Shown: piece by piece, positions 1 to 4,080 of the stretch | Layout of the letters: each line of letters starts with the position of its first letter | How positions within the stretch are numbered: the stretch's first letter is position 1 | Assembly (NCBI RefSeq): GCF_003334335.1 | Contig: NZ_QOWQ01000062.1 | Direction: 5' to 3' (one strand) | Source: Escherichia coli | Lineage (GTDB): Bacteria > Pseudomonadota > Gammaproteobacteria > Enterobacterales > Enterobacteriaceae | Length of the DNA: 12,071 nt | Notes under the pieces: model-generated | What the model saw: only the letters and a program-made list of their open reading frames with translations | Told to the model about the DNA's origin: nothing | Databases searched by the model: none | Translations under genes and position numbers: made by a program

Positions 1-500
1 GCAAATCCGAAGGCCAGACGGGCACACTGAATCATGGCTTTATGCCGTAACATCCGTTTGGGATGCGACTGCCACGGTCCGGTGATTTCTCTGCCTTCGC
101 GGGTTTTGAATGGTTCGCGGCGGCATTCATCCATCCATTCGGTAACGCAGATCGGATGATTACGGTCCTTGCGGTAAATCCGGCATGTACAGGATTCATT
201 GTCCTGCTCAAAGTCCATGCCATCAAACTGCTGGTTTTCATTGATGATGCGGGACCAGCCATCAACGCCCACCACCGGAACGATGCCGTTCTGCTTATCA
301 GGGAAGGCGTAAATTTCTTTCGTCCACGGATTAAGGCCGTACTGGTTGGCGACGATCAACAATGCGATGAACTGCGCATCGCTGGCATCGCCTTTAAATG
401 CCGTCTGGCGAAGAGTGGTGATCAGTTCCTGTGGGTCGACAGAATCCATGCCGACACGTTCAGCCAGCTTCCCTGCCAGCGTTGCGAGTGCTGTACTCAT
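1..500 (-). CDS. bet: Bet (Red-beta) single-strand annealing recombinase, N-terminal ~166 aa; the 3' end runs off the left edge of the window
   Basis: Reverse-strand translation from the ATG at 498-500 gives MSTALATLAGKLAERVGMDSVDPQELITTLRQTAFKGDASDAQFIALLIVANQYGLNPWTKEIYAFPDKQNGIVPVVGVDGW..., which I recognise as lambda Bet. Not listed in the ORF track because it is truncated by the window edge. Confidence 0.9.
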   Translation of the reverse strand, partial: MSTALATLAGKLAERVGMDSVDPQELITTLRQTAFKGDASDAQFIALLIVANQYGLNPWTKEIYAFPDKQNGIVPVVGVDGWSRIINENQQFDGMDFEQDNESCTCRIYRKDRNHPICVTEWMDECRREPFKTREGREITGPWQSHPKRMLRHKAMIQCARLAFGF

Positions 501-505
501 CCGTT

Positions 506-802
506 TTATACCTCTGAATCAATATCAACCTGATGGTGAGCAATGGTTTCAACCATGTACCGGATGTGTTCTGCCATGCGCTCCTGAAACTCAACATCGT
601 CATCAAACGCACGGATAATGGCTTTTTTGCTGGCCCCGTGGCGTTGCAAATGATCGATGCATAGCGATTCAAACAGGTGCTGGGGCAGGCCTTTTTCCAT
701 GTCGTCTGCCAGTTCTGCCTCTTTCTCTTCACGGGCGATCTGCTGGTAGTGACGCGCCCAGCTCTGAGCCTCAAGACGATCCTGAATGTAATAAGCGTTC
801 AT
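506..802 (-). CDS. gam: Gam, host RecBCD nuclease inhibitor (98-aa short form)
   Basis: ORF track protein [60 protein letters not shown]... matches lambda Gam. The upstream in-frame extension seen in lambda is closed here by a TGA, so only the short form is encoded. Confidence 0.9.
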
Positions 803-875
803 GGCTGAACTCCTGAAATAGCTGTGAAAATATCGCCCGCGAAATGCCGGGCTGATTAGGAAAACAGGAAAGGGG

Positions 876-1082
876 TTAGTGATTCAGGCCGTTACCGCGT
901 CCGTCGAGAAAAACTTCCACGAGCAAATCACGGGTATAAGTGCGCTCGATGCCGCGATGCAGATAAAGCCGTCCGCGTAAATTAGCTGATGCAGTCCAGG
1001 TACCATCTTTGTGTTTGACCAGCATTCCTGGCATGACCGCGCCGCGATTAACGGTCTGCGTTCCGTAATGTTGATGAACCAT
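876..1082 (-). CDS. Small protein in the position of lambda kil (possible Kil-like host division inhibitor); alternative start at 1166
   Basis: ORF 876..1166 in the track. The internal ATG at 1080-1082 is preceded by AGGAG with a 5-nt spacer, giving a 68-aa product [29 protein letters not shown].... It lies between gam and the PL region. The functional call is positional only. Confidence 0.4.
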
Positions 1083-1355
1083 AAAAACTCCTGCCCGTAA
1101 GCTGGGCTGCTGAACATATAGAGACTTCTGCGCGTATTCAGGCGGTGGATGGCCGCCGGTTGTCATAACTAAGCCGCCTCGTTGAAGCGACTAAGGTATG
1201 AAATGTTGAGTTGATTTCAGCTGGTCACACCGACGTTCACGCGTCCGTTTCACCCCTCGCACTCCCCGAAGCCTGCTGAAATTCAAACTGCGGATCTAAG
1301 CGGTCATCGCAACGGTGAATCAGGTGGTTGCCGTATCGTTGTGTTGTTGCGATGA

Positions 1356-1410
1356 ACCTATTTAAAACTATAGTTGTTTTACCGTCAACAACAAAAGTTG
1401 TTTTATTGGT
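1356..1410 (-). promoter_or_regulatory. OL/PL-like leftward early promoter with overlapping operators
   Basis: On the - strand: TTGACG (rc of 1383-1388), a 17-nt spacer, then TTAAAT (rc of 1360-1365). Operator-like palindromes with AACAAC/GTTGTT half-sites include AAAACTATAGTTGTTTT (about 1364-1380) and AACAACAAAAGTTGTT (1388-1403). A near-identical 17-mer also sits in the OR region (4032-4048). Confidence 0.55.
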
Positions 1411-1524
1411 TGTTTTAGATATAACTGGTTGTATTTAGGATGGATTTATTTTGTGACTTGAATCGCATAGCGATAACTGAAGCGAGGTTATGGTGGTTTT
1501 TTGAGCGGTTTGTGTGATGAGGGG

Positions 1525-1557
1525 AGGCAAAAGAAAACCCGGCACGGTGGCCGGGTT
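1525..1557 (-). terminator. Rho-independent terminator ending the cI-led operon (equivalent of lambda tImm)
   Basis: Stem CCCGGC (1538-1543) / GCCGGG (1550-1555) with a 6-nt loop. On the - strand the hairpin is followed by TTTTCTTTTG. It lies 35 nt downstream of the stop of the 1591..2418 gene. Confidence 0.7.
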
Positions 1558-1590
1558 ATTAATAAGGAATATCACATACAAAAATAAATT

Positions 1591-2418
1591 TTAAACTTGG
1601 GGAAGTATTTTTTTTGCAAAATCAATAGTTTCTTTGTGGTTGGATGCAGGTATATGATTTATTTTCTTAGCATCCATAGTTCTCTTTATGATGTCAATAA
1701 CTTTGCTTTGGCCTGAGTTTGGTGATTCAGGAGTTTCAATTGTGAATAAAATGTCATCAAGTGAAAGCAGGTTTTCTTCTGCTGCTCGAGTTATTCTCAT
1801 CACCCAAGTATCACTATGCTCCATCATTTTTCCTGGTTCAGCTTGAGTGAATGCCAGAGGTTTGATGGCACATTGGATCCTGTCATGCTTCTTGGCGACC
1901 AATGGCATTGAGAACTTTGCGAAATACCCATCAATGGTTGCTTGTTTGAAGACGTTCTTCAATCCATCTATTCTATCTATACTTCGTTTTAGCTCTCTGG
2001 CTAGAACATCTTCACGGCGCTCTTTTGTGTAGTCAGAGTGGTTTACATATTTATTGTAAATGCGGGCCAGCTCTTCTTTTGGGTTTTCGCTGAGAATCAC
2101 TCTCGTAGAACTGAACTGAAAAATTGATTCTTTTTTGTTTGTAAAATATCTGAAGAATTGTGCAAGTTGTTGATGTCCAACAATCTGGGTCGCATGCATT
2201 TTTGCGAACTGTAGTTCTCTTTGTATTGAGTCTTTTGCTACAGGGAAAATACAATCATCATGGAAAAAATTCTTTACACGAGAGTCATTTCGCTTTGTGA
2301 GCTGGAAATCAAAGTAATTTTCTTTTGGCGCGCACAGAAGTACGCCTATGTTTGCGAACTCTTCAGTCTCCGCATAAGGCGCATAGCGAACGATGCTATA
2401 TAGGCATGGAGTTGTCAT
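1591..2418 (-). CDS. DUF3037-like protein of unknown function, second gene of the rex-position cassette
   Basis: ORF track 1591..2433 begins at a TTG. The first ATG (2416-2418) overlaps the upstream gene's TGA (ATGA overlap) and is preceded by GGAG. The N-terminal motif CLYSIVRYAPYAETEEFANIGVLL resembles the DUF3037 signature as I remember it. Visibly AT-rich compared with flanking phage core genes. Confidence 0.5.
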   Translation of the reverse strand: MTTPCLYSIVRYAPYAETEEFANIGVLLCAPKENYFDFQLTKRNDSRVKNFFHDDCIFPVAKDSIQRELQFAKMHATQIVGHQQLAQFFRYFTNKKESIFQFSSTRVILSENPKEELARIYNKYVNHSDYTKERREDVLARELKRSIDRIDGLKNVFKQATIDGYFAKFSMPLVAKKHDRIQCAIKPLAFTQAEPGKMMEHSDTWVMRITRAAEENLLSLDDILFTIETPESPNSGQSKVIDIIKRTMDAKKINHIPASNHKETIDFAKKILPQV

Positions 2419-3164
2419 TCTATTGCGCTCCAAAATTCATCACAATCACCTTTGTCTAGCGTAGTGCAGACAAAAGGTAAAAACTCCTCATCTACTATCC
2501 ACTCTTCTGGAATTTCGTCAAGGATAGCAGGAAGCTTGTGTAAACTGTTAACGACCCTCTGGCGGTACTCTACGCGATCCACTAAATCATATTGCCATTT
2601 GCGGTTACCAGGGCCGTACACGTGCACAGAAAAATCTTCAGGTCCAGCATTCTGATCAAATGAGAGATTATGGTCAATCAGATAATACTTATCGTTACTG
2701 ATGTCATAAAGGATGTTAACGTTTCCACCTTTGTCAGTAAGCGTTCTGTCTGCATTTAATATCCATTTATCAAAAACATAGATTAATTTTTGCTGTTCGA
2801 CTGGGATGATCGTTTCGTTTCTTGACTGCGTAAACGTTAACGCTATTGCACCGTCAATGAACAATGAAGCAAAGGCATATCCTGTACAAATTTGTTGCTG
2901 CAGATCAGGTGAGTACTCTATAAGTTCCTCTGGCACAAATACGATTTTAAAGTCAGGTAAAGGAAGGCCGATATCATTAGCCAAACACGCCGAAATGAAC
3001 TCAGCTAAGAGATTTTTCGGGGGCATTGATGGTTTTGACTTCAAAACATACAACTGCCCATCATCACATTTGCAAAGAAATGGCTGAGTGGAACCTTCAT
3101 TGATGCGACGTATTACTTCAACGACATTAGGTATTGCACTATTGCTGCTCGCTACGCACTCCAT
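2415..3164 (-). CDS. HipA-like kinase-fold protein (putative Ser/Thr kinase), first gene of the rex-position cassette
   Basis: ORF track 2415..3167 begins at a GTG; the adjacent ATG at 3162-3164 has an AAGGGT Shine-Dalgarno. The motif FDKWILNADRTLTDKGGNVNIL resembles the HipA-family catalytic loop (h-h-N-x-D-x-H/R ... N), and LIDHNLSF could be the DFG-equivalent metal-binding motif. The family call is from memory, not a search. Confidence 0.45.
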   Translation of the reverse strand: MECVASSNSAIPNVVEVIRRINEGSTQPFLCKCDDGQLYVLKSKPSMPPKNLLAEFISACLANDIGLPLPDFKIVFVPEELIEYSPDLQQQICTGYAFASLFIDGAIALTFTQSRNETIIPVEQQKLIYVFDKWILNADRTLTDKGGNVNILYDISNDKYYLIDHNLSFDQNAGPEDFSVHVYGPGNRKWQYDLVDRVEYRQRVVNSLHKLPAILDEIPEEWIVDEEFLPFVCTTLDKGDCDEFWSAIE

Positions 3165-3286
3165 CACTAACCCTTATGTGATTCAAGTCTTCCATCTCAT
3201 TACTCCGCATCTCAAAGAGCGGTTTAACACTGCGTGTTTAAAGAAAAACAACAGGCCTATTGCTGTAACTGTTTTTTAGCCTCACT

Positions 3287-3976
3287 TTAACCATGCTTCC
3301 TATATGTCTGCGGCATGCTCCCAATAACCTTACCGAAGATGAACACCCGGTTCATCTCGTCTTTCTCGATCGGGTCCCACGGTGAGTAGCTTTTGTTATC
3401 AGAGATGACCAGCAGCTTATCCTTCATCATTTGCAGGCGCTTTACATGGGCTGTGTCGTCGTACAGAAACGCATAGATACCATCACCGTCGAAAGATTTA
3501 ACTGTGATATCAACGAACAGCAGATCACCTGGTTCGATCGTTCCTGACATGCTGTCACCACGCACGTTAATGATGCGGATATTTTCCGCCTTCCTACCAT
3601 CGAACATGTGACGAGCATCGTCAAACGAGTACTCAACCGAGCGTAGAACTTCTACAAACTCACGGTTGATGACTCCCGGCCCAGCACTGACTTCTATATC
3701 AAGAACGTCAATCTTGAAGTATTTGGAATGGCTGACAGTTGATTGTATTGGTTGCACTGTACTGTCTGACATATTTCCAACGCCAGAAGATAACCATTCT
3801 GCGCGCACACCCAAAGCGTTCGCGATCTCCACGATTTTAGTTGTTTGATTAGCTTTCCCTGTTTCGATTTTCTGAATAGCAGCTTGGCTAACCCCGACCA
3901 AATCCCCAAGCGCCTTTTGTGTAAGGCCTCGCGCTAATCTGGCTTCTTTAAGTCTTTCTGAGAGTGTTGTTTTCAT
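3287..3976 (-). CDS. cI: CI-type prophage repressor: N-terminal HTH (XRE family) plus C-terminal S24 LexA-like autopeptidase domain
   Basis: Translation from the internal ATG: MKTTLSERLKEARLARGLTQKALGDLVGVSQAAIQKIETGK (HTH), then GDSMSGT (Ser nucleophile motif) and AHVKRL (catalytic Lys). The ORF track's 22-codon upstream extension is unlikely. No Shine-Dalgarno precedes the ATG, which fits a leaderless PRM transcript as in lambda. Confidence 0.85.
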   Translation of the reverse strand: MKTTLSERLKEARLARGLTQKALGDLVGVSQAAIQKIETGKANQTTKIVEIANALGVRAEWLSSGVGNMSDSTVQPIQSTVSHSKYFKIDVLDIEVSAGPGVINREFVEVLRSVEYSFDDARHMFDGRKAENIRIINVRGDSMSGTIEPGDLLFVDITVKSFDGDGIYAFLYDDTAHVKRLQMMKDKLLVISDNKSYSPWDPIEKDEMNRVFIFGKVIGSMPQTYRKHG

Positions 3977-4080
3977 AGTCCAAATGTACAACCAAGGTTT
4001 TATTCCATCAAACGAAAATGGTTGTTGACTAAAAACAACCATAGTTTTAATCTTGATTCAAATTAACCACGGAGGTTGTT
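3977..4080. promoter_or_regulatory. OR region with divergent PRM (leftward, cI) and PR (rightward, cro) promoters and operators
   Basis: PR candidate on +: TTGACT (4025-4030), 17-nt spacer, TAATCT (4048-4053). PRM candidate on -: TTGATG, 17 nt, TACATT ending about 6 nt before the cI ATG. Operator-like repeats: 17-mer AAAACAACCATAGTTTT (4032-4048) and inverted repeat GGTTGTT...AACAACC (4020-4040). Confidence 0.6.

Follow-up and report, generated by a model that had tools for sequence, protein, structure and literature searches.

Short form of gam beside a KilR-type division inhibitor gene in Escherichia coli: a long frame probably closed by mosaicism

Two isoforms of the Gam protein, GamL and GamS, have been described, and the structure of GamS bound to RecBCD has been solved (Wilkinson et al. 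2016, PMC5218532). Either isoform potentiates quinolones when expressed from a plasmid, and GamS alone is active in vivo (PMC5218532). The lambda record annotates GamL as a frame of 138 codons that starts inside the neighboring gene kil, which overlaps both gam and cIII (PMC3961180). The overlap with kil covers about 15 first codons of the 138-codon frame and holds the GamL ATG. This start lacks a Shine-Dalgarno sequence (GCTTATAAAAA-ATG) comparable to that of gamS, where AGGAG is found at a distance of 7 nt. The kil genes of lambda and of the Rac prophage share no similarity (PMC3961180), and the Rac protein, KilR, is described by the models NF008465 and PRK11354.

KilR-type prophages of E. 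coli (RefSeq proteins WP_000995467.1 beside WP_000233576.1; phages PhiR26_1, Turner and Perceval) have the gene order KilR-type inhibitor, gam of 98 aa, bet and exo, and their gam is annotated as 297 nt. We analyzed a stretch of 12,071 nt of E. coli DNA, referred to below as the window, that has the same gene order and is 97-99% identical to these prophages at the nucleotide level. Most of them carry another allele of the leader between the two genes (TCCCC, GCCTGG, CAGCCATTTTC), in which the first in-frame stop upstream of gam is a TAA at 18 codons, whereas the window combines the KilR-type gene with a lambda-type leader and a run of four cytosines (C4), which places the in-frame stop at 27 codons. 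From lambda the window differs in the state of the long frame, which is shut by the stop at 886..884 and lacks a start codon, but the two share the Shine-Dalgarno and start context of gam, a leader of 73 nt and the position of gam 5' of bet-exo.

The gam gene of the window occupies positions 506..802 on the minus strand in the list of open reading frames, encodes 98 aa and ends with TAA at 508..506. Its ATG (802..800), at which the longest mechanical ORF of this frame begins, is preceded at 7 nt by a strong Shine-Dalgarno sequence, AGGAG at 810..814, also on the minus strand (GCTATTTCAGGAGTTCAGCC-ATG). The 5' part of bet (Red beta; 1..500, minus strand) begins 5 nt past the gam stop and leaves the window. 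The ORF of gam is intact, has a start and a ribosome-binding site of its own and lies in the operon context kil-gam-bet-exo. Its product belongs to the Gam family of host-nuclease inhibitors (PF06064 / phrog_259), residues 1-98 matching the whole 98-position profile of phrog_259, 'gam-like host nuclease inhibitor' (E 3.4e-60). It equals lambda Gam residues 41-138 at 95 of 98 positions (97% identity). When lambda Gam itself was searched against Pfam, PF06064 (98 positions) covered residues 41-138 only; since PF06064 and PHROG 259 both have 98 positions, the curated families equal GamS. The gene is likewise annotated as 297 nt or 98 aa in RefSeq and in phage records, including PhiR5_1 (PV340545.1), which is 100% identical to the window and lists gam as 297 nt. 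From the identity of 97% to lambda GamS we infer that the 98-residue product forms a dimer that mimics DNA and thereby binds and inhibits RecBCD, and the sequence context points to ATG 802 as the actual translation start. A separate observation concerns the lambda reference Gam, which carries minority residues at two positions. Of 31 open-frame relatives, 29 have I in place of L62 and 30 have A in place of S101, and at both codons the window agrees with the majority.

Translation of the minus strand of positions 506-1000 showed that the gam frame continues 5' of ATG 802 for 27 sense codons and then meets a TGA at 886..884. The initial annotation held that this reading closely resembles the lambda long-form N-terminus, and direct alignment bore this out: lambda GamL residues 17-40 account for 24 of the 27 residues, and the window is identical to lambda base for base over 760..875, which means homology and not chance. 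The frame had been set correctly. None of the 27 in-frame codons between the TGA and 802 is ATG, GTG or TTG, and the window has no in-frame ATG about 40 codons 5' of the GamS ATG with an uninterrupted frame between them, as GamL would need. The claim that only the 98-aa form of Gam can be encoded is upheld by this stop, by the lack of a start codon and by the C-run simulations given below. Non-canonical initiation inside the 27-codon stretch, for example at ATC 883..881, which has no preceding Shine-Dalgarno sequence, may be conceived. The initial annotation had further described the long extension as closed by an in-frame stop near 880. The stop is indeed there, at 886..884, but the comparison with lambda and with relatives does not suggest the implied point event by which a once open frame was shut. 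On the minus strand the TGA (884..886) lies out of frame within two codons, CTG-AAT (Leu-Asn), of the KilR-type gene, and by our own arithmetic a stop is expected by chance in about 85% of random 40-codon stretches, 1-(61/64)^40, so its presence in a non-coding leader agrees with chance expectation.

We considered whether the C-run length or the TGA could have been miscalled during sequencing or assembly, so that the true long frame would be open. Homopolymer lengths are error-prone, and in the collections searched the C4 allele occurs elsewhere only in PhiR5_1, which is 100% identical. However, in simulations with run lengths from C3 to C7 the gam frame was always closed within 24-30 codons and always lacked a canonical start; therefore a homopolymer miscall cannot alter the conclusion. 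All three frames 5' of the C-run close within 10 codons. The TGA itself falls in the conserved codons GLNH* at the end of a gene whose 68-aa protein is identical to a RefSeq entry (WP_000233576.1), and its readthrough would join Gam to an out-of-frame reading of this KilR-type gene. An artefact thus appears very improbable.

The gene in the kil position ends with TAA at 878..876, i.e. inside the region 506-930, where the initial annotation had located the 3' end of a kil-position ORF. The longest ORF here is 876..1166 on the minus strand (96 aa, from ATG 1166), and it is annotated in this form in PhiR5_1. We favor a shorter gene of 68 aa at 876..1082 (minus strand), because the RefSeq CDS, the NCBIfam alignment, which begins at residue 29 of the longer reading, and the Shine-Dalgarno sequence AGGAG before ATG 1082 agree on this start. 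The 68-aa product is identical to WP_000233576.1, a 'phage encoded cell division inhibitor protein'. The match to NF008465 ('FtsZ inhibitor protein') covers profile positions 1-70 of 73 with 61.9 bits (E 4.4e-17), below the curated cutoff of 92, so that the protein, which sits in the same kil slot of the lambdoid early-left operon as Rac KilR, appears to be a relative and not a member of the subfamily. We refer to it as a KilR-type FtsZ or cell-division inhibitor. The kil-position protein also matches phrog_294 (E 1.2e-38). It gave no BLASTP alignment to lambda Kil at E<=100 and no PHROG match to the lambda Kil families phrog_3924 and phrog_2461. Pfam gave no match for the 96-aa ORF, and the identity of the gene comes from NCBIfam and PHROGs. 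The C-terminal codons GLNH* are conserved in most aligned leader variants of the KilR type, a few having CTC for CTG. Annotation of the start is inconsistent among records, with 96 aa in PhiR5_1 and 93-139 aa elsewhere, some under the names 'hypothetical protein' or 'membrane carboxypeptidase'.

Direct alignment shows no difference between the window and lambda from a point within gam to position 875. Here the C-run at 872..875 (minus strand), just past the stop of the kil-position gene, has four cytosines in the window, five in lambda and C4-C7 or TC4 in relatives. If this difference of 1 nt is allowed, the identity runs on through TCACTAA to about 882, so that the shared tail comprises the last two codons and the stop of the kil-position gene; 5' of about 882 the sequences are unrelated. 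The same boundary is seen in the megablast matches of phages with lambda-type kil, which begin at query position 419, i.e. window position 882. We suggest that this junction arose by recombination. The C-run, whose length varies among phages that are otherwise nearly identical, adjoins the boundary of the lambda-kil and KilR modules, which share just the last codons ..CAC TAA, and recombination may have joined the modules here, across a short conserved linker.

To see how relatives compare, the IMG/VR collection was scanned with the conserved gamS start region. Among the at least 120 loci listed, the 138-codon frame is open in 32 and closed in 88, the initial annotation having proposed a check of related prophages for a shared stop. 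Among these listed matches, all 32 open-frame loci have a lambda-type kil, and the 88 closed ones divide into 59 with a KilR-type neighbor, which is every KilR-type locus found, and 29 with a lambda-type kil. From a second scan, anchored on the GamL ATG in lambda-type kil, 113 loci could be used: 59 have an open frame, and 52 have a frame broken by an indel of ±1 nt with gamS intact (98 codons). Using a probe of 221 nt that spans the junction, we obtained matches at about 3900 places in 3146 of 5426 complete E. coli genomes, and at least 2166 of the 5426 cover at least 80% of the probe and thus carry the KilR-type/gam junction. In RefSeq the two E. coli genes are annotated as a division inhibitor of 68 aa and a Gam of 98 aa. 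For the exact C4 junction next to the KilR-type end there was no match in IMG/VR and no 100% match in the 5426 genomes, where the best one (99.5%) has TCCCC. The C4 allele is therefore rare, while the KilR-type junction class is the commonest. These counts support the view that the closed long frame is the majority state among relatives and the annotated norm, and no peculiarity of this phage. A short-form-only gam next to a KilR-type gene is ordinary, and public annotation and family models already take account of it.

The same data bear on the possibility that an ancestor made GamL and that a recent nonsense mutation or a frameshift (C5 to C4) destroyed the long form. Such pseudogenization would fit the C4 of the window against the C5 of lambda, and also the rarity of the C4 allele with the KilR-type end (0 in IMG/VR, no 100% match among the E. 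coli genomes). Against it, restoring C5, or choosing any length from C3 to C7, leaves the frame closed and without a start codon; the lambda-type kil sequence that holds the GamL ATG is wholly absent here; and the long frame is missing in all 59 KilR-type loci sampled. We regard this scenario as highly unlikely. What the window lacks is the lambda-type kil module with the GamL start; the absence of GamL follows from this and not from a new stop in a functioning gene, and on sequence evidence mosaicism, not decay, is the supported reading of the closed frame.

We thus consider it very probable that gam exists here in the short form only as a consequence of a mosaic junction with the KilR-type gene, and that the leader is non-coding. 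The window carries a lambdoid early-left (pL) recombination module composed of the KilR-type division inhibitor, gam and bet. According to this explanation, a transcript that includes the KilR-type gene, presumably the early-left one from a pL promoter placed by eye, would continue into gam, and ribosomes would initiate at the Shine-Dalgarno sequence and ATG (814..800) to make the 98-residue Gam, the RecBCD inhibitor. The leader of 73 nt would stay untranslated and would have a common ancestry with that of lambda; its translation would give lambda-like residues because it was inherited from the same ancestor. The 138-codon frame of lambda would exist only through the in-frame ATG from the overlapping kil and the right leader length, whereas in the window the leader meets the unrelated KilR-type gene at the mosaic junction at about 882, and no long frame exists.

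The leader (803..875, minus strand) extends from the kil-position stop to the gamS ATG, is identical to that of lambda and translates as pseudo GamL residues 17-40. It might have been kept as a functional RNA or DNA element, for example an intrinsic terminator of the lambda tL2 cluster or a translational control of gam, and this would complement the mosaic explanation. The tL2 terminator cluster of lambda maps between bet and ral. A terminator scan found a terminator-like hairpin at 835..852 on the minus strand (GCCCGGCATTTCGCGGGC followed by GATATTTT), a match to the consensus only, with five GC pairs, a loop of 8 nt and then a T-run. Over 23 leader variants, 93.9% of the stem cells are paired, compared with 36-50% in slid controls. 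However, no pair is changed on both sides in these 23 variants, and the covariation score is no different from the mean of the shuffles. The fold of the leader is unremarkable (z -1.4), and its 0.12 variable sites per nt are similar to the 0.09 of gamS, so recent common ancestry suffices to account for how well the leader is conserved. With a consensus pattern at 852..835 and a stem without compensatory change, the hairpin is a predicted element only, and a literature search on tL2 terminators returned nothing usable. A retained function of the leader is thus conceivable but doubtful. Nucleotide alignment shows that the leader alleles of relatives differ by an indel of 1 nt (CAGCTA-TTTC vs CAGCCATTTTC) and by the length of the C-run.

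Upstream of the KilR-type gene, we noted two overlapping genes at 1591..2433 and 2415..3167 (both minus strand; 280 and 250 aa) between cI (3287..4042, minus strand) and the early-left leader, i.e. at the position of rexAB in lambda. They match the PADLOC candidate defense system PDC-M66B/PDC-M66A (E 4e-16 and 6e-15), and the PhiR5_1 record names them HipD antitoxin and HipA toxin. They are a candidate defense or toxin pair carried by the prophage at the classic moron position. Directly 3' of the PDC-M66B-like gene is a strong terminator-like hairpin (1536..1557, minus strand; eight pairs, six of them GC, then TTCTTTTG), which probably ends the cI/defense transcript. The interval 1167..1590, from the immunity region to the first early-left gene, contains no N-like ORF and no ORF longer than 48 aa. 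Early-left antitermination in this phage may be N-independent, put-RNA-like or of another kind. A possible pL promoter was recognized by eye on the minus strand (TTGACG at 1388..1383, a spacer of 17 nt, TTAAAT at 1365..1360), which would give a leader of about 260 nt. This putative leader (1083-1345) folds no better than shuffled sequences (z -0.5), and Rfam revealed nothing relevant in the whole window at gathering thresholds or in 780-1650 at E<=1.

Finally, we asked whether GamL is coding where its frame is open, using 41 unique open-frame haplotypes. GamL codons 16-40 contain 6 synonymous and 5 non-synonymous variable sites, where 32% synonymous is expected given the transition bias (P about 0.1); the corresponding counts are 1/10 and 2/9 in two control frames, and 19/21 in gamS (P 0.014). 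Synonymous/non-synonymous and codon-position tests on the open extension gave no clear signal for or against coding in either sample of loci. The synonymous excess is not significant, but it leaves room for purifying selection on GamL and for some role of the extension in lambda-type phages, which this phage would lack. We lean slightly toward the view that GamL arose by accident at the lambda kil-gam junction in a restricted lineage and is not a conserved product, with GamS as the sole Gam maintained in evolution, because the long frame is absent in every KilR-type phage sampled and in about half of those that retain lambda-type kil together with the GamL ATG, and because its start has no Shine-Dalgarno sequence. 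The opposite reading, which draws on the mild synonymous excess, would make GamL a young extension specific to the lambda lineage with some function.

For annotation, our results mean that gam should be given as 98 aa and its neighbor as a KilR-type division inhibitor of 68 aa, not as lambda Kil or as a 96-aa protein. The missing long form is no defect: judging from its sequence, gam appears normal and functional, and the closed frame carries little biological weight. The comparative counts lend some support to the view that the functional unit conserved in Gam is GamS, a point of interest for recombineering and for cell-free systems, where GamS is already in use.
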